This document shows, piece after piece, positions 6,401 to 62,195 of a DNA stretch of 64,000 bases; the first letter of the stretch is position 1, and the number at the start of each line of letters is the position of its first letter. Both the position numbers and the translations under genes were made by a program. Source of the stretch: Candidatus Aminicenantales bacterium (lineage in GTDB: Bacteria > Acidobacteriota > Aminicenantia > Aminicenantales > JAFGAV01). The stretch is from assembly GCA_049697055.1 (NCBI GenBank), contig JBAVVA010000020.1:219-64218 (forward strand), written 5' to 3'. The notes under the pieces were generated by a model. That model saw only the letters and a list, made by a program, of their open reading frames with translations, was not told the origin of the DNA and searched no databases.

Positions 6401-8108
6401 CAAGGAAGCGCCCTTCCGCGGGCTGGAAACTATTTTCCGGCTTCAGCCGGTCTATCTCAACGGCCACTACGAGGGGTTTATTTTCAACCTGATTGATGTG
6501 ACCGAGCTGGTCCTGGCCAAGAAGGAAGCCCAGGCCGCCAGCCGGGCCAAGAGCGAATTCCTGGCCAACATGAGCCACGAGATCCGAACTCCCATGAACG
6601 GGATATTCGGAATGACCGAGCTGGCCCTGGGCACGGAGCTCACTCCGGAGCAGCGGGAGTACCTGGAAGCCATAAAGACTTCCTCCGAATCCTTGATGAA
6701 CATCATTAACGACATTCTCGACTTCTCCAAAATCGAGGCCAAAAAGTTCGAACTCGATCCCGTCCAATTCAATCTCCGGGACACGATCCATAACATTATT
6801 TCCGTTATGGCCATCCAGGCCGACAGGAAAGGCCTGGAACTGGCTTACTCCATTCCGCCGGATATTCCGGACCGGGTGATCGCCGATCCCGGACGACTCC
6901 GCCAAATCCTGACCAACCTCATCGGCAACGGCATCAAATTTACGGCCAAGGGAGAAGTGATTGTGACTTTGGAAAAAGGCGAGCAGACGCCCTCCGGCAC
7001 GTTGATCCATTTCAAGGTAAAGGATACAGGAATTGGAATCCCCCCGGTCAAACAAAAGATGATCTTCGACCCCTTCATGCAGGTGGACAGCTCCATATCG
7101 CGAAAATACGGGGGGACGGGCCTGGGCCTGGCCATCACCTCCCATCTGGTCGAGATCATGGGCGGAGAAATATGGGTGGAAAGCGAGCTCGGGCGAGGCA
7201 GCACTTTTCATTTCACCGTTCAGATGGGGCTGGCTCAGACTCCGGAGGTGGAGTTGAAACCCGTGGAATTCAAGGATATCAAGGACCTCAGAGTGCTGGT
7301 GGTGGACGACAACGCCACCAACCGGCAAATCCTTCAAGAGATGCTCACCAACTGGCAGATGCTGCCGGCCGCGGCGGAAAGCGGAATCCAAGCGCTGACC
7401 ATGCTGGAAAGCTCCAGCACCCTGGGCCAATCCTTTCCCCTTATTCTTCTCGACGCCAATATGCCCGAAATGGACGGCTTCACTTTTGCCCAGAGAATCA
7501 AACAGGATCCCCGATTTTCCAGCATTCTCATCATGATGATCAGTTCCGCCGGCATCCGCGGCGACGCCGCCCTCTGCCGGAAACTGGGTATTTCCGCCTA
7601 TCTGACCAAGCCGATCAAGCAATCGCTTCTTCTGGACGCCATCCTGCTGACGCTCGGAACGACCGCCGAAAAACAAGAAGCCCTGCCCTTGATCACCCGT
7701 CATTCTCTACGTAAAGCCGGCCGTCCCCTAAAAATTCTCGTGGCCGAAGACAACATCATTAACCAAAAGATGACCGAGCGCGTCCTCCAGAAATATGGTC
7801 ATAGCGTCAAGATTGCCCAAGACGGCGTTGAGGTGCTGTCCCTCCTGCCGACCGACACTTTCGACCTTATCCTGATGGACGTCCAGATGCCCAACCTGGA
7901 CGGCTGCCATACGACCATGGCCATTCGCCAAGAGGAGAAAAAAACGGGCACTCATATTCCCATTGTGGCCATGACCGCCCACGCCATGAAAGACGACAAA
8001 GAACGCTGCCTGGCCTCGGGCATGGATGATTATATCTCCAAGCCCATCAAGCCGGAATTCCTGATCGAAGTGATCAATCGGGTGATCGTGCGAAAAGAGA
8101 CCTTCTAG
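3465..8108 (+). CDS. Hybrid sensor histidine kinase with periplasmic double beta-propeller (two-component-regulator propeller repeats + Y_Y_Y), TM, coiled coil, PAS, HisKA, HATPase and two receiver domains
   Basis: Start at ATG 3465 (RBS aaggaaa). Signal-like 'LIWLWLSLLCLTPALQAQ'. More than 14 repeats of 'DxxGxLWIGTxxGLNRFD'. H-box 'HEIRTPMNGI'; G-boxes 'GNGIKFT', 'GGTGLGLAI'. Two REC domains (asp pockets 'LLDANMPEMDG', 'LMDVQMPNLDG'). Confidence 0.85.
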   Translation: MKEPRRLGIVIVTEEKFGEKKCLGPRGAKKPVLGKALIWLWLSLLCLTPALQAQEEPFQVRRLANQEGLSQNAVNWIIQDRKGFMWIGTQDGLNQYDGLRFTVYASDPADPNSLPDGNILALHEDGQGNIWIGTLAGGLNRLDRETRKITSFRHERGNPNSLANDRVTSICEDNSGTLWVGTYGGGLDRFDPASKKFTHYRNDLKNPNSLINDRINCLIRDSSGLLWVGTFDGLDRFNPGPGEFVHFRHAPHDAASLNDNQVVAICEDRSGNLWIGTENGGLNEYILREKRFISFGNNPQDPLSFSTNNIRTIFEDSRGLIWIGTRRGGLSLLNPETQKVTRYRYDSKNPNGLSSDDIRFFYEDRTGMIWIGTFGGGLNCYNPAKKAFIHYTRQEGDPQSLAGYAVRAIYQDRLGNLWIGTFNGLNRFDPKTKRFNLYQYNPGASQGLSSNLVYCITEDRQGALWVGTQGGGLNRFDPRTNLWTRYLHNPKNPGSLSDDIVNTIFFDRGGVLWVGTLLGLDRFDRSKNSFSHCQNDPNDPASLSDNDIRVVYEDRSGKMWIGTRNGGLNAFDRSTGKFRRYLHDPENPQSLSNNCIFCIYEDRSGIIWLATRGGGLNRFNPATETFSHYTVKQGLPNNVVYGILEDDPGNLWLSTNRGLACFNPNTQKFKKYDVRDGLQSNEFNFGAYCKTKNGEMLFGGINGFNIFHPSDLKDNPHIPPVVITDFQIFNKSVPLGQGPGGRPILKKCITESEAVALSYKENVFSFEFAALDFIMPDRNEYAYKMDGFEKDWNYVGQRHFVTYTNLPPGRYVFRAKGSNNDGVWNEEGAALKITITPPFTQTIWFRGGAILAGLLLILSYIQLRTRAIRQKNIQLEENVQERTSELQKEIQERRQAEQIIQKEAAKLGAMISGMEEGILLADPHDQILEVNGYFLKLLGKKKSELIGKPLWDFDPFQEAGDLRKDIQEFKEKPNSSAVVKEAPFRGLETIFRLQPVYLNGHYEGFIFNLIDVTELVLAKKEAQAASRAKSEFLANMSHEIRTPMNGIFGMTELALGTELTPEQREYLEAIKTSSESLMNIINDILDFSKIEAKKFELDPVQFNLRDTIHNIISVMAIQADRKGLELAYSIPPDIPDRVIADPGRLRQILTNLIGNGIKFTAKGEVIVTLEKGEQTPSGTLIHFKVKDTGIGIPPVKQKMIFDPFMQVDSSISRKYGGTGLGLAITSHLVEIMGGEIWVESELGRGSTFHFTVQMGLAQTPEVELKPVEFKDIKDLRVLVVDDNATNRQILQEMLTNWQMLPAAAESGIQALTMLESSSTLGQSFPLILLDANMPEMDGFTFAQRIKQDPRFSSILIMMISSAGIRGDAALCRKLGISAYLTKPIKQSLLLDAILLTLGTTAEKQEALPLITRHSLRKAGRPLKILVAEDNIINQKMTERVLQKYGHSVKIAQDGVEVLSLLPTDTFDLILMDVQMPNLDGCHTTMAIRQEEKKTGTHIPIVAMTAHAMKDDKERCLASGMDDYISKPIKPEFLIEVINRVIVRKETF

Positions 8109-24099: not shown

Positions 24100-24550
24100 T
24101 ATTTCTCTCCTTGCGCCGCTCTTCTTCCTTTCTCTTGCGCAGGTCTTCCTCCCAGGTCACAAAGCTGTGGTAGAAGACGGCATCTCCCTCGTCGATGCCG
24201 CGGGTGATCTCGGTGATGTGCGAGGTCGAGGCGCCGAAGGCCTCCACGGCAAAAAAAACCGCTTTTTCCGGGTCCACTTCCGCGCCGCAGGTGTAGATGT
24301 CGAGCGCTCCGTAGCCGTGTTCGGGCCAGGTGTGGATGGAGATGTGAGATTCGGAGATAACCACCACGCCGCTGACGCCGTTGGGCGGGAATCGGCTGAA
24401 GGAGATAGCCCACACTTTGGCGCCGGCTATCTCAGCGGACTTGACCAGGATTTGTTGCACCTTCTCTATGCTGCCGATGATGTTCGGGTCGCAGTTTGAG
24501 GCTTCCACGATGTAATGATGGCCGATGGTCTGGAATTCCTTCTCCGCCAT
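24089..24550 (-). CDS. speH: S-adenosylmethionine decarboxylase proenzyme (pyruvoyl-dependent, SpeH type)
   Basis: Self-cleavage motif 'VVVISESHISIHTWPE'. Confidence 0.85.
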   Translation of the reverse strand: MAEKEFQTIGHHYIVEASNCDPNIIGSIEKVQQILVKSAEIAGAKVWAISFSRFPPNGVSGVVVISESHISIHTWPEHGYGALDIYTCGAEVDPEKAVFFAVEAFGASTSHITEITRGIDEGDAVFYHSFVTWEEDLRKRKEEERRKERNNGS

Positions 24551-27074: not shown

Positions 27075-27548
27075 GTGCACGTCGAAACACAAAAAGTTAA
27101 GAAAATCCTGGCCGAGCATAAGAACCAGAAAAAAGCGCTCATCCCCATCCTCCAGGACATCCAAGCCGAATACAATTATCTTCCCCCCGAGGCCTTGAAG
27201 ATCGTCTCCCAAACCCTGGCCCTTCCCTTGATTGATGTGGTCGGTGTGGCCACCTTTTACCGGGCTTTCAGCTTAAAGCCTCGGGGCCAGAATGTGGTCA
27301 CGGTCTGCCTGGGAACGGCCTGTCACGTGAGAGGGGGGCCGAAAATTCTCGATGAATTTGAAAAAAAGTTGAACATCAAAGCTGGCGAAACGACAAAAGA
27401 CAATCACTTTACCCTGGAAATCGTCAACTGCCTGGGCGCCTGTGCCCTGGGTCCCATTACCGTCATCAATGGAAATTATTTCGGGCAGATGAAGATCAAA
27501 AACGTTGACCGCCTGATCAAGAAATTCGGCCCGGCCAAAAGGAGTTGA
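27075..27548 (+). CDS. NuoE/HoxE-like thioredoxin-fold [2Fe-2S] subunit (24-kDa subunit family)
   Basis: GTG 27075 with RBS gggaggga 5 nt upstream (TTG 27045 is an alternative start); 'ALIPILQDIQAEYNYLP', Cys ligands 'CLGTAC...CLGAC'. Confidence 0.8.
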   Translation: MHVETQKVKKILAEHKNQKKALIPILQDIQAEYNYLPPEALKIVSQTLALPLIDVVGVATFYRAFSLKPRGQNVVTVCLGTACHVRGGPKILDEFEKKLNIKAGETTKDNHFTLEIVNCLGACALGPITVINGNYFGQMKIKNVDRLIKKFGPAKRS

Positions 27549-30500
27549 TGCCCCTAATGAAACCAACAGTGGATTTTGAAAAATTAAAAGAAATCAGGGC
27601 TGAAATTCTAAAGGATAGAAAAAAACGCAAGAGGACGATCACTGTTTGCGGAGGAACGGGGTGCCATGCCTATGGGTGCCTCAAGGTGGCCCAAGCCTTC
27701 CAGCGGGAAATCAAAAAGCAACGACTTCAAAATTCTGTCGAGGTCAGAACCACCGGCTGTCATGGCTTCTGCGAGAGGGGACCGATCGTCGTGATTCAGC
27801 CCGAGGGGATCTTCTACCAAAGGTTAAAACTGAAGGACGTCAAAGAGGTCATTTCCAAAACAATTAAAAACAAAAAAATAATCGACCGGCTCTTATATGT
27901 GGATCCGGAGACGAACAAGAAAATCGTTTATGAGAAGGCCGTCCCCTTTTATAAAAAGCAAAAACGCATTATTTTCGGCCACAACGGCCTCATCGATCCT
28001 ACAGAAATAAAGGATTATATCGCGGTCAACGGTTATTCCGCCCTGTCCAAAGTCTTGAGTCGAATGACCCCCCCGGAAGTTATTGAAGAAATAAAAAATT
28101 CCGGACTCAGGGGACGCGGGGGGGCGGGCTTTCCCACGGGGTCCAAATGGGAAGTCACGGCCAAGGCGCCAAGCCCGGTCAAGTATATTGTCTGCAACTG
28201 CGACGAAGGCGATCCCGGAGCCTATATGGATCGAAGCTTGTTGGAAGGAAATCCCCACAGTGTCCTGGAAGGCATGCTGATTGGAGCCTTTGCCATAGGG
28301 GCCCAGGAGGGATACGTTTATGTCCGGGCTGAATATCCCATTGCCGTAGAAAACATTTCCATCGCCATTGAACAGGCCAGGAAATACAACCTGCTGGGGA
28401 ATAATATCTTGGGGTCCGATTTCAGTTTCGATGTTTTCGTCTCCAAAGGGGCGGGCGCTTTTGTGTCCGGGGAGGAGACAGCCCTTTTGGCCAGTATTGA
28501 AGGCAAAATTGGGGTCCCCCAACAAAGGCCGCCCTATCCGGCCCAAAAAGGACTGCGGGGAAAGCCGACCAATATTAATAATGTAGAGACATGGGCGAAC
28601 GTGCCCTTCATCATCAATAAAGGCGCTTCCTGGTATTCTCAAATCGGGACCAATGGAAGCAAGGGGACCAAGATATTTTCTCTGGTGGGGAAAATCAACA
28701 ACACCGGCTTGGTCGAAGTGCCCATGGGAATGACCCTTAGGGAAATCATCTTTGATATAGGCGGAGGAATTCCAGAAGGGAAAAAATTCAAAGCCGTCCA
28801 GACCGGAGGACCCTCCGGGGGATGCATTCCCCAAGAACTCATTGATTTGCCCATCGACTATGAAAGCCTGGCCAAGGCCGGCTCGATCATGGGCTCGGGC
28901 GGCATGATCGTCATGGACGAGAACACCTGTATGGTGGACGTGGCCAAGTATTTCCTCAACTTCCTCCGTGACGAGTCCTGCGGCAAATGCGTTTCCTGCC
29001 GCGAAGGCACCCAGCGAATGTGGGAGATCGTTAAGAACATCACCGACGGCCGGGCCAAGATGGAAGACCTGGCACTCCTGGAGGAACTGGCCGGCGCGGT
29101 CAAGGACGCCTCCCTGTGCGGATTGGGCCAGACGGCGGCCAACCCGGTGTTGTCCACGCTCCGCTATTTCCGCCACGAGTACGAGACGCACCTTAAGCAG
29201 ATGCGCTGCCCGGCTTTGGTCTGCAAGGAGATCGTCGGGTCTCCCTGCCAGTATATCTGCCCTGCCGACCAGGAAGCCTCGACCTACATCGCCCTGATCG
29301 CCCGGGGCGACCTGGCGGAAGCCTATCGCATCATTCGCAAGGACAATCCCCTGCCCAGCGTCTGCGGCCGGGTTTGCAACCATCCCTGCGAGAAAGTCTG
29401 CCGGGCGAGCGAGATGGGCGAGCCCATCGCCATCCGCGCCCTCAAGCGCTTCGTCCTGGACTGGGCGGCTTCCCACAACTTGAAGCCCTCGCTCCCCTCC
29501 CGTGAATTGAAGAGCGAGAAGGTGGCCGTGGTAGGCGCCGGGCCGGCCGGCTTGTCCGCCGCCTACATTCTTAGCCTGAAGGGCTACCCGGTAACGGTCT
29601 ATGAGGCCTCTCCGGTCGCCGGCGGCTGGCTGGCTCTCGGCATCCCCGAGCACCGGCTGCCCCGCCAGGCCCTCCAGGCCGACCTGGACCATATCCGGAA
29701 GGCCGGGGTGACCATAAAAACCAACACCGTCCTGGGACGGGACATCACCGTCTCCGGTCTGTTCAGCCAGGGGTTCAAGGCGGTGTTCATCGCCACCGGA
29801 GCCCACAAGTCGATGAAGCTGGAAATAGCGGGCGAGGAAGCCCGGGGCGTGCTCAAGGGGACCGAATACCTGAAAAAAATCAACCTGGGCCAGAAGGCGG
29901 AGCTGGGCCGCCGGGTCGCCGTTATCGGCGGCGGCAATACAGCCATCGACGCCGCCCGGGCGGCGGTGCGCGACCCTGCCTGCCAAAAAGTCATAATCCT
30001 CTATCGCCGGACGCGCGAGGAGATGCCGGCCTTCTCCGAGGAAGTGGAGGCGGCCATCGAGGAAGGGGTGGACATCAGGTTCCTGGCGGCCCCCGTTAAA
30101 GTCCTGACCGAGGGAGGCCGGGTCATCGGCCTGGAGTGTATCCGCATGAAGCTGGGAGACAAAGACGAGAGCGGCCGGCGGAAACCGGTGCCCCTCCCCG
30201 GCTCGGAGTTCAAGGTGAAGCTGGACACGGTCATCGCCGCCATCGGCGAAAGAGCCGACGCCGCTTCTTTCACCAAGGGTGAGTCCATCGACATCAGCCA
30301 GTGGGAGACGATCGTAACCGACCCGGAGACTCTGGCCACCAACCGGCCGGGCGTCTTCGCCGGAGGCGACGTGGCCACCGGGCCGCGGACGGTTGTGGAG
30401 GCCATCGGCCAAGGCAAGCTCGCGGCAGAATCCATGGCCCACTATCTGGAAGGCGTTCAGCCGGTGCGCGAGTACAAGCTCAATCGGCCGTCGCTGTACG

Positions 30501-30706
30501 TCGAGCCGATGGAACTCTCCGAAGAAGAGACGGCTAAAGCTTCCCGGCCGAAGATTCCTCGTCTGACGGTCAAAGACAGACACCTTTCCTTCCGCGAGGT
30601 CATCCAGGGGTTGAACGAGGCGCAAGCCGTGCGCGAAGCGCGGCGCTGCCTGCGCTGCGACCTGGAGACGGAAGACGGCAAGAAAGCCATAGGAAAGAAC
30701 ACATGA
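27545..30706 (+). CDS. Fusion protein: NuoE-like [2Fe-2S] domain + NuoF-like NADH/FMN/[4Fe-4S] module + GltD-like FAD/NAD(P) oxidoreductase (glutamate synthase small-subunit / NfnB / SudA-like)
   Basis: 'TVCGGTGCHAYGC...TTGCHGFCERGP'; NuoF 'GRGGAGFPTGSKW', 'GAGAFVSGEETALLASIEG', 'ESCGKCVSCREG'; GltD part two [4Fe-4S] Cys clusters, 'VAVVGAGPAGLSAAY', 'VAVIGGGNTAIDAAR'. Confidence 0.85.
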   Translation: MMPLMKPTVDFEKLKEIRAEILKDRKKRKRTITVCGGTGCHAYGCLKVAQAFQREIKKQRLQNSVEVRTTGCHGFCERGPIVVIQPEGIFYQRLKLKDVKEVISKTIKNKKIIDRLLYVDPETNKKIVYEKAVPFYKKQKRIIFGHNGLIDPTEIKDYIAVNGYSALSKVLSRMTPPEVIEEIKNSGLRGRGGAGFPTGSKWEVTAKAPSPVKYIVCNCDEGDPGAYMDRSLLEGNPHSVLEGMLIGAFAIGAQEGYVYVRAEYPIAVENISIAIEQARKYNLLGNNILGSDFSFDVFVSKGAGAFVSGEETALLASIEGKIGVPQQRPPYPAQKGLRGKPTNINNVETWANVPFIINKGASWYSQIGTNGSKGTKIFSLVGKINNTGLVEVPMGMTLREIIFDIGGGIPEGKKFKAVQTGGPSGGCIPQELIDLPIDYESLAKAGSIMGSGGMIVMDENTCMVDVAKYFLNFLRDESCGKCVSCREGTQRMWEIVKNITDGRAKMEDLALLEELAGAVKDASLCGLGQTAANPVLSTLRYFRHEYETHLKQMRCPALVCKEIVGSPCQYICPADQEASTYIALIARGDLAEAYRIIRKDNPLPSVCGRVCNHPCEKVCRASEMGEPIAIRALKRFVLDWAASHNLKPSLPSRELKSEKVAVVGAGPAGLSAAYILSLKGYPVTVYEASPVAGGWLALGIPEHRLPRQALQADLDHIRKAGVTIKTNTVLGRDITVSGLFSQGFKAVFIATGAHKSMKLEIAGEEARGVLKGTEYLKKINLGQKAELGRRVAVIGGGNTAIDAARAAVRDPACQKVIILYRRTREEMPAFSEEVEAAIEEGVDIRFLAAPVKVLTEGGRVIGLECIRMKLGDKDESGRRKPVPLPGSEFKVKLDTVIAAIGERADAASFTKGESIDISQWETIVTDPETLATNRPGVFAGGDVATGPRTVVEAIGQGKLAAESMAHYLEGVQPVREYKLNRPSLYVEPMELSEEETAKASRPKIPRLTVKDRHLSFREVIQGLNEAQAVREARRCLRCDLETEDGKKAIGKNT

Positions 30707-31395
30707 TCACCATCACCCTCAACGGTGTCGAAGTCCAGGTTGAGGAGCATTGGTCCGTCCTCGAGGCGACTAAGTTCTACGGCCTGGCCATTCCGACGCT
30801 CTGCTATCACGAGGGGCTGAGCCCCTTCGGCGGCTGCCGCCTGTGCCTGGTCGAGATCGGGGAAGCGCCCCGGACCAAGCTCATTTCCTCCTGCACTTAC
30901 CGGGTCGAGCCCGGCCTCATCGTCAGGACGGACACCCGGCGGGTAGTCGAAGCCCGGCGGATGATGATCGAGCTGATGCTGTCCACGGCGCCTTATTCCA
31001 AGGTCCTCCAGGACCTGGCCTCCAAGTACGGGGTAACCCGCCAGAGGTTCAAGCCGCGCAACGACGAATGCATCCTGTGCGGCCTGTGCGTCCGGATTTG
31101 CGCCGAGCAGATGGACGGACGGGCCATCGGCTTCCAGAACCGGGGCCATAAGAAGAAGGTGTCCACGCCTTTCGACAGGCGCTCCGAGGAATGCCGGCTG
31201 TGCGGCGCCTGCATGTACATCTGCCCGGCCTGCCAGCTCCGCTGCCAGGGGCCTCAGGCCGACACGGCCCTGTGCAACGCCTGCCTGACCATGGAGCCCA
31301 CCTGCCTGGAGCAATATGACGAGCTCCGCTGCTGGATGTACGACGCCGGACGGTGCGGGACCTGTGTCCAGCCCAACCCGGATCAAAGCAAATAG
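30703..31395 (+). CDS. NuoG/HydA N-terminal-like ferredoxin ([2Fe-2S] + His-ligated [4Fe-4S] + 2x[4Fe-4S])
   Basis: 'ITLNGVEVQVEE...CYHEGLSPFGGCRLCLVEI', 'CILCGLCVRIC', 'CRLCGACMYICPAC'. Confidence 0.75.
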   Translation: MITITLNGVEVQVEEHWSVLEATKFYGLAIPTLCYHEGLSPFGGCRLCLVEIGEAPRTKLISSCTYRVEPGLIVRTDTRRVVEARRMMIELMLSTAPYSKVLQDLASKYGVTRQRFKPRNDECILCGLCVRICAEQMDGRAIGFQNRGHKKKVSTPFDRRSEECRLCGACMYICPACQLRCQGPQADTALCNACLTMEPTCLEQYDELRCWMYDAGRCGTCVQPNPDQSK

Positions 31396-31463
31396 AGCCA
31401 GGAAGCAAGCGATGCCCACGACTGGCTTGATCATAGACGGACACCAATAATAAGGAGGTCATC

Positions 31464-33041
31464 ATGTCTTATACGAAACTCAATCGCAGCGCAGCGACCC
31501 TGACCAAGAACAGAACGGAAGGCTCGATCAGCCCCTTCAGCGGGATGTGCGTCACCTGCGTGGACGGCTGCATCGGGATGTGCGAGATCGGCAAATCCGC
31601 CTACCGGGGCCCGGAAGTCCTCTATCCCCAGCCCTTCGGCCTGATCACCGCGGCCTCGGAGAAAGAATATCCCTTCGACCTGTCCCATTTCAGCATCATG
31701 GGCACGGCCGTCGGCGCCCACGGCTGCGCGGCCGATTCCGACGTGGCCACCTTCGAAAAGGTCACCGTGGAGACCAAGATCGGCCGGGACAAGTCCATCA
31801 AGCTCAAGCTGCCCTTCGTCCTGGGCGGGATGGGCTCGACCAACGTAGCCAAGCAGAATTGGGAGGGGATCGGCATCGGGGCGGCCATTTCCGGCGTCAT
31901 CCTGACCGTGGGCGAGAACGTCTGCGCCATGGACGAAGAATCCGAGATCAAGAACGGCCGGGTGGTCCGCTCCCCGGATATGGAAATGCGGGTCAAGAGC
32001 TTCCAGAATTGGTATGACGGCTACGGCACGGTCGTCGTCCAGGCCAACGTGGAGGACACCCGGCTGGGAGTTCAGGAATACGCCATCAACAAGCTGGGCG
32101 TCCAGGCCGTCGAGCTCAAGTGGGGCCAGGGGGCCAAGGACATCGGCGGCGAGGTCAAGATCAAGAGCCTGAAAAAGGCCCAGGAATTGCGCGGGCGGGG
32201 CTACATCGTCCTGCCCGACCCCGAGGACCCCAACGTCATCAAAGCCTTCGAGAAGGGCAGCTTCAAAGAATTCGAGCGGCACTCCCGGCTGGGCATGGTC
32301 GAGGAGGAAAGTTTCATGAAGCGCGTGGAGGAGCTCCGCCGGGCCGGGGCCAAGCACGTCTTCCTCAAGACCGGCGCCTACCGTCCGGCCGACCTGGCCC
32401 GCGCGGTCAAATACGCCTCCCAGGCTAAAATCGACATGCTGACCGTGGACGGCGCAGGCGGCGGCACGGGCATGAGTCCCTGGCGGATGATGAACGAGTG
32501 GGGCATCCCCTCGGTCGAGATCTGGTCGCTGACCCACCAGTATGAGGATAAACTGGCCCAGCGGGGCGAGTACGTGCCCGACACCGTTTTCGGCGGGGGC
32601 ATCACCTTTGAGGACCAGATCTTCAAAGCCCTGGCCCTGGGCTCACCCTACGTCAAGGCGGTGGGCATGGCCCGCGGCCCGCTGGCCTCGGCCATGGTGG
32701 GCAAGACCATCGGCAAGCGGATCGCCGAGAGCCAGATCCCGGTTTACGTCGAGCGGTTCGGCTATTCGGTCGAGGAGATTTTCGTCACCGCCCCCGAACT
32801 CAAGCACAAATACGGCGACCGGTTCGCCCAATTGCCCACCGGAGCCATCGGCGTCTACACCTACTTCCGGCGGCTGAGCCAGGGCCTGCGCCAGCTCATG
32901 GCCGGCAACCGCAAGTTCGGACTGGAGCACATCACCCGCGACGACATCGCCTCCCTGACCAAGGAAGCGGCCGACATCTCCGGCATCTCTTATGTCCTGG
33001 ACGTGGACAAAGACGAGGTGGAGAAGATACTGAAGGGCTGA
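31464..33041 (+). CDS. Glutamate synthase large-subunit FMN/[3Fe-4S] synthase domain as stand-alone protein (archaeal-type GltB)
   Basis: RBS taaggagg; 'CVTCVDGCIGMCE' Cys cluster, 'GGMGSTN', 'DGAGGGTGMSPW' FMN-domain motifs. Confidence 0.8.
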   Translation: MSYTKLNRSAATLTKNRTEGSISPFSGMCVTCVDGCIGMCEIGKSAYRGPEVLYPQPFGLITAASEKEYPFDLSHFSIMGTAVGAHGCAADSDVATFEKVTVETKIGRDKSIKLKLPFVLGGMGSTNVAKQNWEGIGIGAAISGVILTVGENVCAMDEESEIKNGRVVRSPDMEMRVKSFQNWYDGYGTVVVQANVEDTRLGVQEYAINKLGVQAVELKWGQGAKDIGGEVKIKSLKKAQELRGRGYIVLPDPEDPNVIKAFEKGSFKEFERHSRLGMVEEESFMKRVEELRRAGAKHVFLKTGAYRPADLARAVKYASQAKIDMLTVDGAGGGTGMSPWRMMNEWGIPSVEIWSLTHQYEDKLAQRGEYVPDTVFGGGITFEDQIFKALALGSPYVKAVGMARGPLASAMVGKTIGKRIAESQIPVYVERFGYSVEEIFVTAPELKHKYGDRFAQLPTGAIGVYTYFRRLSQGLRQLMAGNRKFGLEHITRDDIASLTKEAADISGISYVLDVDKDEVEKILKG

Positions 33042-33057
33042 CGCGCCGCAACAGGAT

Positions 33058-33098
33058 AAAAAGGGCTCCTCGCTATAAAAACGAGGAGCCCTTTTTAT
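33058..33098 (+). terminator. Rho-independent terminator after the GOGAT-like operon
   Basis: 'AAAAGGGCTCCTCG-ctataaaaa-CGAGGAGCCCTTTTTAT' perfect 13-bp stem + T-run. Confidence 0.8.
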
Positions 33099-33119
33099 AT
33101 AAATCATTTCTTTTCGGTT

Positions 33120-33284
33120 GCATCTCCAAACGTTTGATATATGGGGAGGGGTGGCACGGCGCCAGTTCCCGCCCGCCCGAAGCGCATGGTGGTGGGTGGG
33201 CGGGTCTTGCGCGAGGACGGACGGGAACGCGCCGTGACAGGACCCCTCCTCTTTTTAAATGCTAGATCATACATTTGGAGATGC
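33120..33284. repeat. Hairpin-forming repeat element copy A (terminal GCATCTCC...GGAGATGC, core GGGGAGGGGTGGCACGGCG / GCCGTGACAGGACCCCTCCTCT)
   Basis: Shares 8-bp inverted termini and ~20-nt core arms with the copy at 40780-40913; variable apical region is internally complementary. Confidence 0.6.
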
Positions 33285-33364
33285 AACCTTTCTTTTCACC
33301 ATTTTTTTCACCATCCCTTTACCGCCCGAAGGCGATATGCTATAAATAGCTGCGGTTTGCTGAC

Positions 33365-34060
33365 ATGAACATCCTCTTCACCGCCATCCAGCTGTTCGTG
33401 CTCCTGTTCGCCATCACCATCCATGAGACGGCTCACGGCTGGGCGGCCATGAAGAAGGGAGACCTGACCGCCTACAGCATGGGCCGCGTCTCGCTCAACC
33501 CCCTGGCCCACATCGACCCGTTCGGCACGATCCTGGTCCCGCTCCTACTCGTCCTGCTCCGGGCCCCGGCCTTCGGCTGGGCCAAACCCGTGCCGGTCAA
33601 CCCTTTCAACCTCAAAAACCCGCGCCGGGACAGCTTATGGATCTCGGCGGCCGGCCCGGCCTCCAACATCCTAACCGCCATAGTGGCCCTGGGCCTCATT
33701 ATTCTTCTTAAGGCTGTCAGCCCCGGCGTCCAACTCTTTTTCGAAAACCTAAGCACTTTTCAAGCCACGCGGGCCGGAGGGGCTGTAGGCATCAGCCTCG
33801 TAAACGGCCTGGCCCTCATCCTCTTCTTCGCCGTACTGGTCAACACCTACCTGGCCGTTTTCAACCTCATTCCCATCCCCCCGCTGGACGGCGGCGGCGT
33901 GCTCATAGGGTTGCTTTCCCCGGCAGCCGCCTCATCCTATGAGCGGATCCGGCCCTACGGCTTTTTGCTGGTGATGGGGCTCATCTACCTGCGCGTCCTG
34001 GATATCATCATCCAGCCCATCCTCTCCCTCATTTTCACCGTCATATTCATCAAGCTATGA
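33365..34060 (+). CDS. Site-2 protease family (M50) membrane zinc metalloprotease, short form
   Basis: 'HETAHG' HExxH in TM helix, 'NLIPIPPLDGG' LDG motif, polytopic. Confidence 0.7.
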   Translation: MNILFTAIQLFVLLFAITIHETAHGWAAMKKGDLTAYSMGRVSLNPLAHIDPFGTILVPLLLVLLRAPAFGWAKPVPVNPFNLKNPRRDSLWISAAGPASNILTAIVALGLIILLKAVSPGVQLFFENLSTFQATRAGGAVGISLVNGLALILFFAVLVNTYLAVFNLIPIPPLDGGGVLIGLLSPAAASSYERIRPYGFLLVMGLIYLRVLDIIIQPILSLIFTVIFIKL

Positions 34061-40083: not shown

Positions 40084-40707
40084 TTAATACATCACCCCGC
40101 ACTGGTCGATCAGCGTCCCGCTGAATTTTTTAAGCTGCAGGTAGAGATGACCCTTCATGATGCCGGCCTGCACCTCTTTACTATGCGGCGTCGCCTCCGT
40201 CACATAATCAAAAACATGGTTCAAGGTGAAACCACTTTCCGTAAACTGCATAGGGGGGACTTTGGGAATGCGGCAATCAAACACATAATCCTCCCATTCC
40301 TGGTTGATGTTGAGTTTGAAAAGACAGGCCTTGAGTTTTTCTCCGGATACAAGTCCATCGATGTCGATCTTTCCCTTCAAGGCCGCCTGGCACTTTGCCC
40401 CATTGGGGGCAGTCGCTGTGGAAGTCCCCTTGGCATCTTTAACCAAACCTTTTATGGCCCAGATGCCGACCTTATCATTCCAGGAGATCTCGAAAGGGAT
40501 ATTTGCCCTTAAGTCAATTTCATGGACGCCATGGCTGACATACTTGAGAGTCTCGTGGAACTCAAATTCCCCGGTGAAGTTCGGTTTTGTTTCGCCCGGT
40601 TGGCTGGGCGGGGAGGAATGGGCAGTTCCGTCGGCCGGCCCGCCGGCTAAGAATGAGATTAGCCCAGCCGCCAATACCAAGGCCAAAAAGGGAATAGCTT
40701 TTTTCAT
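40084..40707 (-). CDS. Exported hypothetical protein
   Basis: Signal peptide 'MKKAIPFLALVLAAGLISFLAG'; visibly lower GC than neighbours; no recognisable domain. Confidence 0.4.
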   Translation of the reverse strand: MKKAIPFLALVLAAGLISFLAGGPADGTAHSSPPSQPGETKPNFTGEFEFHETLKYVSHGVHEIDLRANIPFEISWNDKVGIWAIKGLVKDAKGTSTATAPNGAKCQAALKGKIDIDGLVSGEKLKACLFKLNINQEWEDYVFDCRIPKVPPMQFTESGFTLNHVFDYVTEATPHSKEVQAGIMKGHLYLQLKKFSGTLIDQCGVMY

Positions 40708-40779
40708 GACCCCTCCCCCATCGCGAGGGAGTATAAGGCCCGCCTCAAAAAAATGTCAAGGAAAGTTCTGACAAAAGAA

Positions 40780-40913
40780 GCATCTCCAACCCTGTGATAT
40801 AAGGGGAGGGGTGGCACGGCGGAAGGGCTCCCCACCCGCGCGCAGCTTGGCGAGCACGGATGGGGAGGAGCCGTGACAGGACCCCTCCTCTTCTTGAAGC
40901 TCAAATCACACAA
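40780..40913. repeat. Hairpin-forming repeat element copy B
   Basis: Same termini and core arms as 33120-33284; apical part differs but keeps complementarity (GGCTCCCCA...TGGGGAGGAGCC). Confidence 0.6.
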
Positions 40914-41067
40914 AAGGAGATGCTTTCTCTGATAAACTGGATCTATCACGAAAAAAGTGATGCTTTCCTGGCCGTTTCTCTCATTGAGAAAATCAGGAGA
41001 ATATGAGATAAATAAAGGCCGTGCCTCATCAAAAGCTTTCCCAGCCTTTGCCGTCAAAGTGAGGAGA

Positions 41068-41595
41068 ATGATGATGAAAATCCGATGGAGCCCTGTTCTT
41101 GTCCTTGTCTTTCTGTCGCTGGCCCTTGTCTGCTGCCAGCGCCAAGGGGAGGAGAAGCCCGCCGGGACCCTGCCCGTCAGAGAGCTCCTGGCAGCCGGAC
41201 GGTCGCCGGTGGAGATCCGGTCCATCGTCCCCATGCTGGTCAGCCTGGCCGCCCCGACTTTCAAAGTCACAGTCAAGAACGTCACCGATGCGCCCTTGAC
41301 CTCCATCGTCTGGACGGCGGTGGCCTTCGATGAAAACGGAAATCCCATCCCCGAGGGGGAGGTCGAGGGAGGCTATGCCGACTCTCTCAACCCCATGGCC
41401 GCCGGCGAGACCAGCGAGCTCAGCTTCATGATTCAGGTGGAGAAGACCGCCAGCGTCAAACTGGTGCTCAAGGAAGTGATCTACAAGGCGCCCAACCCGA
41501 TGGGCAAGAAGTATGGCGACCTGCCCTATAAATGGACCAACCCTTACTACCAAGCGGAGCTGAAAAAAGCCAGGGGGATCTCCATCAGTGACTGA
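41068..41595 (+). CDS. Hypothetical lipoprotein/secreted protein
   Basis: Internal ATG giving 'MMMKIRWSPVLVLVFLSLALVCC' signal; no recognised domain. Confidence 0.35.
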   Translation: MMMKIRWSPVLVLVFLSLALVCCQRQGEEKPAGTLPVRELLAAGRSPVEIRSIVPMLVSLAAPTFKVTVKNVTDAPLTSIVWTAVAFDENGNPIPEGEVEGGYADSLNPMAAGETSELSFMIQVEKTASVKLVLKEVIYKAPNPMGKKYGDLPYKWTNPYYQAELKKARGISISD

Positions 41596-59469: not shown

Positions 59470-60669
59470 TTGTCTTTTATTGTGGCTTATCTGTTCAGTT
59501 GCTGGCTGGCCAGTACCCAGCACGCCCAAAGCGCTATCACGCCTTTGATGAAGCCGGACCCCTGGAGTCAAAACATCATCACTCAAAAGGTCCAGATTAT
59601 TCTGCAGATCAAGATGAAATCAGTTTTCAAGGATAGGATCTGCGGCCTCATTACTGAGGATTTCACCTACGATTATGAAATCAATTCAGAGGGCACATTT
59701 CAATACGCGCCGGACTTCAGCCTATTTAGCCTATATGGATATAATGAGGCCCTTGCTCCCAAGCAGATCCGAATCCGGGACGCCAGCGGATATTGGATCC
59801 GGTTCGAGAGCGGATGCCAGGGGGGGACCCGTCATAATTACTCAACTCACCAAGTCCAATACAACGATTGGGCTTATTATGACCTCAGGATCGAGCATCC
59901 CCCACGCTCTGAACACTGCAACGTATATTTTGACAACCATGTGTACCTCCGGTTTCCTGGCTATTCGGGAAATGTTCTCACATCTCCAGAACCGGGTTTC
60001 TATTATGACACCGAGAATATTGACTATATGGTCACTCCGGCGATTATGCAGCAGGCGGTGAGGGAAGGAAGCTATCATAAGACCTTGCAAGTCAGGAGAG
60101 GAGACGGTTCTGAGTATCGCGATTTGACTCTGGACATCACAGTCCTCTTTGAGCCCAAGGAGGAAGGAGTCCTCAAGGTCACGCCACCTGACGGCCTGGA
60201 TGAGTCCTGTCCCAGCTCAAATTGTGATTTCAAATCGCTGGCCAAATCCTATACCCTAACCAACGCGGGCTCTTCTCCGATCAATTACACTGTCTCCAAA
60301 ACGGCAAGCTGGCTTGAACTCACCCCGACTGGTGGCGTATTGCAGCCAGGCGCTTCCACAACTGTAACAGCATCCATTAGCGTTGAGGCCCAAAAAGAAC
60401 TCAAAGAAGGGGTACACAAAGATACTCTTAGCTTCACTAACACGACTAATGGGAAAGGAAACACATCACGCGCTGTCAAGCTGGAGAAGTCTGAACGACA
60501 ATGCTGGCGCGTCACCCTGACTGGACAGGAAACAGATGACATGGGTGGCAGCTTAATGACCATTAAGATGGAAGATGTTTGGAAGCAGGTAACCGTTGAC
60601 TATGGGGTCCGGTTTGACTATCAACTGGTTGCCGAATTCAATATTAGAGCTTGTTCCAAAGTTACGTGA
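59470..60669 (+). CDS. Hypothetical protein, lower-GC, with C-terminal Ig-like/BACON-like beta-sandwich; 3' end created by IS insertion (likely truncated)
   Basis: TTG/GTG start uncertain; 'YTLTNAGSSPINYTVSKTASWLELTPTGGVLQPGASTTVTASI' pattern typical of Ig-like surface domains; last 7 codons (ACSKVT*) lie inside the IS left inverted repeat. Confidence 0.4.
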   Translation: MSFIVAYLFSCWLASTQHAQSAITPLMKPDPWSQNIITQKVQIILQIKMKSVFKDRICGLITEDFTYDYEINSEGTFQYAPDFSLFSLYGYNEALAPKQIRIRDASGYWIRFESGCQGGTRHNYSTHQVQYNDWAYYDLRIEHPPRSEHCNVYFDNHVYLRFPGYSGNVLTSPEPGFYYDTENIDYMVTPAIMQQAVREGSYHKTLQVRRGDGSEYRDLTLDITVLFEPKEEGVLKVTPPDGLDESCPSSNCDFKSLAKSYTLTNAGSSPINYTVSKTASWLELTPTGGVLQPGASTTVTASISVEAQKELKEGVHKDTLSFTNTTNGKGNTSRAVKLEKSERQCWRVTLTGQETDDMGGSLMTIKMEDVWKQVTVDYGVRFDYQLVAEFNIRACSKVT

Positions 60670-62080
60670 TGGCATTTGACAGCGATAAAAAAGAAGGGCT
60701 ACAACCCTCCGTGGTGTCTCCCACAACACTAGGAGGTGTAGCCCAATGGACGACCTCGAAATCAAGATCGCCATCACCTATAAGGTACCAAAAAACAACC
60801 TCACGCTCAACGGTCTTCTGCGCGGGTTGGAGCTCAACCGGGATGAGATCATGAGGGCCATCCTCGGCCGCATCTTGGAAGCCTTGGAAGAGAAGGCCAA
60901 GGACGATTATCCCCCGGGTCGTTATGTCCTGAACGGCCATCAATCGACGGCTCGGAACCTTCGGACCTCGTTCGGGCGGATTCGTCACCGGATGGCTCAG
61001 GTCCTGGATCGGACGACGGGAGCGGTCGTGTTCCCTCTGATCGAACGGTTGAAGATCGAACCGTATCGCCAGTATCAGAGGGAGACGCTGGAAGCGCCGG
61101 TGGGCCAGGCGATCCATCTGTCCTACCGCTGGGCGACGAAGGAGACGCGACGCCTCCGGGGCCATGGACCGAGCACGAGCACGCTCTGGCGTCGGCTTCA
61201 GGAGGTGGCCGAATCTCAGGGCGGCTGGCCGCCTCTCAAACATCGACCGTTTGCCTTTCTGATGGTCGACGGGACCAAGGTCAGGCGCCAACGCCGAGGA
61301 GTCTCCTTGGAGCCGGCGGAAATGCGCTGGGCCTGGGCCTCGGAAGGCGTTGGTAAACCGTTTGAATTGGTGGGGTTCTGGGTGGGAGACAGATGGGAAA
61401 CGATTCGCCGGGACCTCAGTCGCCGTCTGAGCTATGGGCGTCTGCGGATGCTGTTTTCCGATGGCGGGCCGGGCATCGAGGACAACCTCCGTTCGGCGCG
61501 GATGGAGTGTCAGCGGTGCCTCTGGCATGGTCAACACGACTTTCGCTTTCTTCTCTACGCCGATGAGGTCAAGGGACCGGCCCAACGGGAGTTCCTGGAG
61601 CTTTTGAACCGCAATCCTCTCTTCCACCTGCGGCAGGCGGAGCTGGAAACGCTGAAACCCCAGGACGAGCCTCTGGTGCGCAAGCTCGCCCGAACGATCC
61701 GGAGCGGCTTTGGAGAGCTTCTGGCGGCGTTGCCGGAGAGCCGTTATCCGAAAACGCGGACCTACCTTCTGAACTTCTCGAGGCAGGCGTTGGCGTTTTT
61801 CGATTACTGGCTGGACCATCAACAGTGGATTCCGTTCACGACGAACATTGCCGAGTCGGCCTTCAGTCGGGTGGTGAATCGAATCAAGCGAATCGGCCGC
61901 CGCTGGAGCGAGACCGGACTCCTGAACTGGCTGACCATGGCCTTCCGTAAAATCTTTCACCCCGCGTTGTGGACGTCTCTTTGGCGCCAGTATCTGCGGC
62001 TCCATCGCAGCTTGCATCTGGCCTCTTTAATCTCCGAATACCGATGGATCGATGCCATCACGTAACTTTGGAACAAGCTC
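60647..62080 (+). mobile_element. Insertion sequence with 29-bp perfect terminal inverted repeats (GAGCTTGTTCCAAAGTTACGTGATGGCAT ... ATGCCATCACGTAACTTTGGAACAAGCTC) carrying one DDE transposase gene
   Basis: IRs read directly at 60647-60675 and 62052-62080 (imperfect extension to about 60640/62087); encloses ORF 60746-62065. Confidence 0.75.
60746..62065 (+). CDS. DDE transposase (ISL3/IS256/ISLre2-like C-terminal N-x2-E...IKR motif)
   Basis: RBS aggaggtg; 'FLMVDGTKV', 'MLFSDGGPGI', 'TTNIAESAFSRVVNRIKRIGRRW'; stop codon lies within the right IR. Confidence 0.75.
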   Translation: MDDLEIKIAITYKVPKNNLTLNGLLRGLELNRDEIMRAILGRILEALEEKAKDDYPPGRYVLNGHQSTARNLRTSFGRIRHRMAQVLDRTTGAVVFPLIERLKIEPYRQYQRETLEAPVGQAIHLSYRWATKETRRLRGHGPSTSTLWRRLQEVAESQGGWPPLKHRPFAFLMVDGTKVRRQRRGVSLEPAEMRWAWASEGVGKPFELVGFWVGDRWETIRRDLSRRLSYGRLRMLFSDGGPGIEDNLRSARMECQRCLWHGQHDFRFLLYADEVKGPAQREFLELLNRNPLFHLRQAELETLKPQDEPLVRKLARTIRSGFGELLAALPESRYPKTRTYLLNFSRQALAFFDYWLDHQQWIPFTTNIAESAFSRVVNRIKRIGRRWSETGLLNWLTMAFRKIFHPALWTSLWRQYLRLHRSLHLASLISEYRWIDAIT

Positions 62081-62195
62081 GTTTATTAAGAGACAGGCGT
62101 CCTAAAACGAGGACAAGGTCTGCTATCATTTAAGAGTTCTTTTCATTCAATATTTGGCATAAAAAATGCTTATTAATATGCCGAGGAGGGGAAAG

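Follow-up and report, generated by a model that had tools for sequence, protein, structure and literature searches.

The genome of a Candidatus Aminicenantales bacterium (GCA_049697055.1) carries, within a 64,000-nt stretch of contig JBAVVA010000020.1 (positions 219 to 64,218, hereafter the window), two look-alike long hairpins, copy A and copy B, each in an intergenic spacer. The question that they raise is whether they are genes for a structured RNA or copies of a mobile element, and an earlier note made from the letters of the window had proposed either. The analysis favours the second reading with a probability of roughly 0.9: the two hairpins are copies of an undescribed MITE family (miniature inverted-repeat transposable elements) of the Aminicenantes. 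The family is of a well-known mobile-element kind, ordinary selfish DNA and not a new structured RNA, and the hairpin that spans each copy from end to end is a property of palindromic DNA.

Anatomy, target duplications and an empty site

Both copies lie in the same orientation and between genes, as had been described; they are on the + strand, and their arms are exact. The window contains the 19-nt 5' core-stem arm GGGGAGGGGTGGCACGGCG and the 22-nt 3' core-stem arm GCCGTGACAGGACCCCTCCTCT exactly two times each; the former is at 33143-33161 in copy A and 40803-40821 in copy B, and the latter at 33231-33252 and 40870-40891 (chance expectations in the window search of 0.07 and 0.00, respectively). 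The two arms of copy A pair with one another in the fold, and the 3' arm contains an asymmetric internal loop, ACAGGA. The 8-bp inverted termini GCATCTCC and GGAGATGC that had been reported do bound both copies, but the full termini are 12 bp in length and reach 4 nt further out (consensus GGAAGCATCTCC ... GGAGATGCTTCC). Copy A is therefore a complete element of 173 bp (33116-33288, +), and its left terminal inverted repeat (TIR), GGTTGCATCTCC at 33116-33127, is the perfect complement of the right one, GGAGATGCAACC at 33277-33288. Copy B is a complete, canonical element of 152 bp (40776-40927, +) which aligns without gaps with 47 other copies of 152 nt, and its TIRs, AGAAGCATCTCC at 40776-40787 and GGAGATGCTTTC at 40916-40927, pair at 10 of 12 positions. 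It had been placed at 40780-40913, which is correct as to its presence but stops 10 nt short, as the right 8-bp terminus is at 40916-40923.

Moving inward, the order of parts is the TIR, an imperfect continuation of it as far as GTGAT/ATCAC, variable linker arms, a G+C-rich core stem and an exchangeable apical hairpin. Copy A has a type-1 outer shell with a 69-nt apical module of type 2 (33162-33230, +), which is predicted to fold into a Y shape with two small hairpins, and it matches the family profile from end to end in an nhmmer search. The apical module of copy B (40822-40869, +) is 48 nt long and of type 1, the commonest form, with a mean pairwise identity of 0.925 among 48 copies. Typical elements are 150-180 bp and non-coding, with no open reading frame (ORF) inside, and the family as a whole spans 29-403 bp. 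RNA folding, which had been suggested as a check, returned long hairpins for both copies, with -93 kcal/mol for copy A (z = -7.05 relative to shuffled sequences) and -78 kcal/mol for complete copy B; when copy B was clipped to 40778-40915, so that its right terminus was cut, the value was -60 kcal/mol (z = -2.9).

Each copy is also flanked by a 9-bp direct repeat, a feature which had been missed. The same 9-mer, TTTCTTTTC, stands on both sides of copy A (33107-33115 and 33289-33297; 9/9), and copy B lies between TCTGACAAA (40767-40775) and TCTGATAAA (40928-40936), which agree at 8/9 positions, the right one carrying a single later substitution. Across the family, the flanking 9-mers were identical at 8/9 positions or better, at exactly the predicted positions, in 36 of the 86 unique copies with two termini, whereas in a control for which the left 9-mer was taken 9 nt further out the agreement was never above 5/9. 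The sequence of the repeat is different at every site.

To compare filled and empty sites, orthologous spacers were fetched via their neighbouring proteins (loci are abbreviated to L numbers). In L162 (GCA_041479055.1) and L163, where the adjacent protein is 96% identical, the spacer of copy B aligns base for base with that of the window and the element is absent. The empty site reads GTTCTGACAAACTGGATC, with a single TCTGACAAA, and the window has in addition the 152-bp element and a second 9-mer, a difference in spacer length of 161 bp (152 + 9). The insertion of copy A is common to L160 (95% protein identity) and L161 (89%), and the site is without the MITE in L154 (88%) and L157 (81%). The latter was considered as a base-exact empty site for copy A and set aside as too diverged at 81% identity, and the copy B site served instead. 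In L154 (approximately 2100-2470) the spacer holds an unrelated insert of approximately 290 bp in place of the MITE, and this spacer may be an insertion hotspot.

A genome scan that took a single genome from each species and used the 3'-arm 19-mer as query returned 35 loci. Thirty of these, with 31 exact matches, are in one 3.18-Mb chromosome of a Candidatus Aminicenantes metagenome-assembled genome (MAG; OY969762.1) and three are in two other Aminicenantes MAGs; the remaining two, in Collinsella and Streptomyces, were rejected as chance matches. Four further diverged copies were found in the fetched flanks by profile search, and a metagenome scan that needed both core arms gave 118 further stretches, so the count of copies called for in the earlier note has been answered with many. 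Gene context was determined for the 36 copies that lie between two called genes, the genes being predicted from codon usage by a simple program. Essentially all were intergenic and their orientation was unbiased, with 13 co-oriented and 10 anti-oriented copies between tandem genes, 11 copies between divergent genes and 2 between convergent genes.

Short copies of approximately 93-116 bp, in which most of the core or apex is gone, were seen in L018 (2252-2340), L035 (6492-6584) and L021 (6342-6457). They keep both termini and the target duplications (8/9 in L035 and L021), and by eye the loss falls between GGGGAGG direct repeats; internal deletions are thus tolerated.

Prokaryotic MITEs are defined as elements of less than 500 bp with TIRs of 4-30 bp, flanking direct repeats and stable stem-loops (PMC10969869). 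The family described here is below 500 bp in size, has no coding capacity, and combines TIRs and flanking target duplications with many dispersed copies and with sites that are filled in one genome and empty in another, and it therefore falls within this definition. The suggestion of a MITE-like mobile hairpin is in this way borne out by the inverted ends, the 9-bp duplications, the exact empty site and the dozens of dispersed copies. Under the proposed mechanism, a transposase encoded elsewhere in the genome would bind both ends of the element, the target would be cut with a 9-bp stagger and the element inserted, and repair of the stagger would leave 9 bp of target doubled, one on each side. 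Copies in intergenic positions may, by analogy with other MITEs, incidentally influence neighbouring genes.

Exchange of apices and ends, and the search for a transposase

The metagenome copies fall into three apex types, of 48 nt (64 copies, like copy B), 69 nt (29 copies, like copy A) and 67 nt (18 copies), each nearly invariant within itself. The strings that had been quoted from the two apices of the window are present as given. Their difference between copies, with self-complementarity retained in each, had been taken as covariation, which is for the most part a misreading, as A and B carry two distinct and interchangeable modules. This can be followed at the copy A site itself. L161 (approximately 581-748) agrees with copy A in its flanks, its rare GGTTGC terminus and its target repeat, but has a 48-nt apex, and in L160 the 69-nt apex is interrupted by two small palindromic modules, X and Y, which shows that apices have been exchanged and invaded at a fixed insertion. 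The likeliest route for the replacement of an apex would be gene conversion through the conserved core stems.

Module X (approximately 100 nt, CCGGAGACACC...GGTGTCTCCGG) and module Y (approximately 130-150 nt) are nested in the core or apex, and in L160 they occupy approximately 362-458 and 478-625. They were also seen in L001, L006, L007, L009, L010, L017, L020, L027, L029, L030 and L032, and Y occurs outside the MITE as well (L007, L022, L106, L107 and L128). Both are present in L160 and absent from copy A of the window, which means that their movement is recent. Read by eye, X mostly comes after (T)GGC and has no target duplication, which suggests that it inserts by a different mechanism.

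The ends of the MITE are likewise found on other cargo. A second MITE family, at L097 951-1127, shares the termini (GGAAGCATCTCC...GTGYGAT) and likewise shows a 9-bp duplication (CATGCCCTG/CATGCCTTG), with an unrelated palindromic interior (GGTGCCGGAATCGCCCC...) that folds at -92.6 kcal/mol; further members were seen in L107, L117, L139, L092 and L042. At L125 4835-4863 there is an element of only 29 bp (GTAAGCATCTCCTTTTCGGAGATGCTTCC), composed of two 12-bp termini and a 5-nt loop and flanked by an 8/9 duplication (TGCTCAGCC/TGCTCAACC), which is either a minimal mobile unit or the remnant of an internal deletion. The unrelated cargo of the one and the ends-only form of the other indicate that it is the termini, and not the cargo, which are mobilised. 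Conversely, the same core hairpin is found within other outer repeats, namely CCCCAATTTTTTAAGTTTTC.../...GAAAACTTAAAAAATTGGGG in L008 and L014 (JAFGMO01) and GCAATTCTTTTTCCGG.../...CCGGAAAAAGAATTGC in L043, and without a recognisable outer repeat in L080/L093 and L121. Ends and cargo therefore assort independently.

An element bearing both a transposase and the MITE ends was not found in the 1.16 Mb of related loci fetched, and a DDE-type transposase acting in trans is for this reason only inferred. All terminus pairs with a spacing of 450-5000 bp were chance occurrences within coding sequence, as was the GCATCTCC pair at 24180/24841 of the window, and orphan termini belonged to the second MITE family, to chance matches or to an IS110-like insertion. 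When pairs of termini with a target duplication were required, only elements of 29-403 bp were returned.

An insertion sequence of approximately 1.45 kb, apparently complete, does lie in the window (60640-62087), with 36-nt inverted ends (60640-60675 and 62052-62087) that are 92% complementary. It encodes a 439-aa transposase (60746-62065) of the ISH6 family (NCBIfam NF041731, score 412 bits, cutoff 240; Pfam UPF0236), and the protein collection has hundreds of relatives of it, located on contigs of 1.4-1.8 kb. Its ends (...TATTAGAGCTTGTTCCAAAGTTACGTGAT) differ from those of the MITE; a TCCAAA...GTGAT motif is common to both, at another distance from the tip. A relative in Aminicenantes (L168) shows, by eye, a 6/8 match for an 8-bp repeat. 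With its different termini this element was considered unproven and was not accepted as the partner of the MITE.

A 9-bp duplication fits several DDE families, including IS1, IS4, the IS903 group, IS66, ISLre2 and IS256. Elements of the IS66 family have GTAA ends and repeats of 8-9 bp, and one example in the literature has 8-bp repeats. The right ends of many MITE copies, with the reverse complement GTAAGC, recall those GTAA ends, which may be a lead to the partner, and the IS1 family may be another.

IS110-family elements are known to insert into repeat termini in other systems. In L029 (approximately 6685-7960, overlapping L033 1-775) an IS110-family-like element lies at the terminus of a composite MITE copy. 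It has a 345-aa ORF starting MYYMGVDNHK and ends ATGATGATGTGATGCA...TGCATCACATCATCAT, and its final 33 nt, at the right junction, match the 3' end of the L102 MITE copy without a difference.

Conservation, covariation and alternative readings

Several observations weigh against a simple MITE. As described above, 1.16 Mb of related sequence yielded no autonomous element whose ends match. Between copies, the identity is 0.93-0.94 in the core and apex and 0.62-0.67 in the linker arms, a contrast that would not be predicted from simple neutral decay following a transposition burst. The same core is found in at least two other outer inverted repeats, and sometimes without recognisable ends, so that it may have a life or function of its own. 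Finally, the G+C-rich element is unlike typical MITEs, which are A+T-rich.

The alternative which survives best, though it is considered unlikely, is that the core hairpin (GGGGTGGCRCGGCG ... GCCGTGACAGGACCCC with the apex) would be a selected module of structured RNA or single-stranded DNA, carried on several transposon shells and using the MITE only as a vehicle. Among 48 copies the mean pairwise identity is 0.94 in those positions of the outer core stem left unfixed by the search, 0.925 in the apex and 0.91 in the inner 8 nt of the termini, but it falls to 0.62-0.67 in the linker arms and to 0.50 in the outermost 4 nt. Also conserved are the asymmetric internal loop and one G-U pair, and the core recurs in the CCCCAATTTTTTAAGTTTTC shell (L008/L014), in the GCAATTCTTTTTCCGG shell (L043) and with no termini (L080/L093 and L121). 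However, 30 nt of the core were fixed by the search patterns, so its conservation across species is in part a matter of ascertainment, and the apex is freely replaced, interrupted or deleted while the copy is retained.

Covariation was examined in the 48 gapless copies of 152 nt with a structure of 53 pairs. Standard pairs filled 90% of cells, compared with 87.1 ± 0.3% in shuffled alignments and 41-48% when the partners were slid by 1-3 columns, and 17 pairs were changed on both sides (11.9 ± 1.5 in shuffles). The terminal helix, which is 78% paired over 23 positions, accounts for 14 of these 17, and matching is expected there anyway because both ends are bound by the same enzyme and the copies come from subfamilies. 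Some compensatory changes are thus genuine, as had been claimed, but they are concentrated in the TIR, the ends of which must match the same transposase regardless. The other three are in the apex: 54-91 in one copy, and two that are a point in favour of a selected core (59-86, A-U/G-C, in 14 copies; 62-83, C-G/U-A, in 7 copies).

The palindrome is actively kept. Template switching within quasi-palindromes can keep arms complementary, and subfamily ancestry, gene conversion and template switching can all maintain a palindrome without any RNA function; conversion or switching would also keep the arms of the core homogeneous. Selection on one strand predicts an excess of G-U pairs, but among pairs with a Watson-Crick consensus there were 54 departures to G-U and 61 to A-C. 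The two strands also fold equally well, at -99.0 and -97.9 kcal/mol for copy A and -78.0 and -80.7 kcal/mol for copy B. These results, together with the random orientation to genes and the lack of a promoter-like site or an Rfam family detailed below, speak against a selected RNA core. A bolder form of the same idea, slightly less likely again, is that the core is the unit of selection, an RNA or single-stranded DNA signal which persists across Aminicenantes lineages by hopping or conversion among shells. If this is true, the conserved stems would be handles for apex swapping and landing pads for small hairpin elements; modules X and Y do differ between genomes in which the neighbouring protein is 95% identical.

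It is rather improbable that the copies are regulatory sequences adopted by the host, serving adjacent genes as terminators, mRNA stabilisers or donors of ribosome-binding sites. Copies are often 4-25 nt from the ends or starts of genes, GGAG faces outward at both termini, type-1 copies present a hairpin with a T-run in one orientation, and such effects are known in other MITEs (PMC3184786, PMC10969869). However, their orientation is random and spacers between convergent genes are under-represented (2/36). In the window, copy A follows the terminator that the operon itself has and is upstream of the next gene's TATAAAT box, copy B is between diverging genes and 8 nt outside a strong promoter-like site, and the copy B site is empty in a close relative.

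The structured-RNA gene that had been proposed is not supported, and a multicopy family of small-RNA genes, with a promoter in the left arm (TGTGATA...) and an end at the core stem and a T-run, is very improbable. By eye there are TG-n-TATAAG-like sequences in the left arm, and the type-1 core stem is followed by CTCTTCTT or CTCTTTTT. A consensus scan, however, detected no promoter-like site inside copy A or copy B, the columns of the putative -10 box rank with the element's most variable ones, and types 2 and 3 have no T-run. The supposed transcript (start GGGGAGGGG, 90-110 nt) would moreover leave the TIRs and target duplications outside it, and neither wobble pairs nor fold energy show a strand bias. 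A search of Rfam 15 at gathering thresholds, one of the checks suggested, gave no match in the window and 15 related loci except one tRNA, and at permissive E-values both copies and the composite copy of L160 gave only sub-threshold chance matches. The MITE reading is thus retained over that of an RNA gene.

The weakest alternative, a REP/BIME-type element moved by RAYT (Y1/HUH) or a palindrome derived from IS200/IS605, in either case moving as single-stranded DNA, can be dismissed as highly implausible: such repeats are also palindromic, G+C-rich, intergenic and mosaic or nested, but REPs are 20-40 bp and not 150-180 bp, REP and IS200/IS605-type elements have no TIRs and do not duplicate their target site whereas 9-bp duplications and 12-bp inverted termini are present here, no Y1 transposase domain was found among the predicted window proteins scanned against Pfam, and the empty site excludes mere target preference for copy B. 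A match to a known REP/BIME family, which the earlier note had allowed for, was not obtained. One further parallel is that IS110-family elements insert into REPs, as the IS110-like element of L029 does at the terminus of this MITE.

Related elements and the surroundings of the two copies

The closest architecture in the literature is that of Chunjie in Geobacter uraniireducens Rf4, which is 178-235 bp with TIRs of approximately 21 bp and 9-bp direct repeats, is present in tens of intergenic copies and many partial ones, and has predicted hairpins of high stability, at approximately -98 to -130 kcal/mol (PMC3184786, PMC10969869). Exchangeable apical modules are not reported for it in these texts. 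Compared by description only, the two families match in size, duplication length, repeat length and fold energy; Chunjie differs in being A+T-rich and in another phylum, whereas the Aminicenantes element has a G+C-rich core.

Longer versions of ERIC exist in which extra sequence is inserted internally at fixed positions, and a TA dinucleotide flanks the Correia elements. ERIC and the Correia elements of Neisseria are imperfect palindromes over their whole length of 100-160 bp, intergenic and multicopy, and are treated as MITEs; they form long hairpins when transcribed, and ERIC too is flanked by TA (PMC3184786). The TA flanks set both apart from an element with 9-bp duplications of varied sequence, and there is no sequence similarity and the hosts are different. 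In QMITE2 of Coxiella burnetii the direct repeats are 7-9 bp long, the TIRs 23-29 bp and the core 113-145 bp, its transcript folds at approximately -113 kcal/mol, and many of its copies are truncated and then REP-like (PMC10969869). Its architecture is similar to that of the Aminicenantes element, but its host and sequence differ and no modular apex is reported for it (PMC10969869).

No paper linking Aminicenantes with MITEs was found in the literature searched. This is apparently the first active MITE family to be documented in Candidatus Aminicenantes, an uncultured phylum, and it comes with a base-exact pair of filled and empty sites. A false lead for a new structured RNA is removed, and these repeats should be masked when screening for structured RNAs. 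They will break short-read assemblies of Aminicenantes and are usable as strain markers. Their modular behaviour, with apex exchange, nested hairpins, shared ends and an ends-only element, is a modestly interesting case of palindromic-repeat evolution.

Copy A is located between a glutamate-synthase-like cluster (27545-33041) and a site-2 protease gene (33365-34060). The glutamate-synthase-like operon ends with a hairpin and T-run at approximately 33053-33098, which relatives conserve with compensatory changes, and copy A begins 18 nt past it, directly after the GOGAT operon terminator as had been stated. The terminator scan missed this hairpin; its loop is 9 nt by eye and the limit of the scan was one nt less. 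On its other side, copy A is upstream of the promoter-like TATAAAT box of the next gene, which is conserved. Copy B is located between two diverging genes, and a near-consensus promoter-like sequence on the - strand (40730-40759, TTGACA-18-TATACT, 11/12) for the gene at 40084-40707 is 8 nt from its target repeat. As copy A follows a terminator and precedes the TATAAAT box, and copy B is between diverging genes and outside the promoter-like site, both are in spacers that are probably untranscribed. The start called for the ORF at 40957-41595, to the other side of copy B, is probably wrong and the real one near 41071, because homologues are 173 aa long and cover 82% of the ORF.

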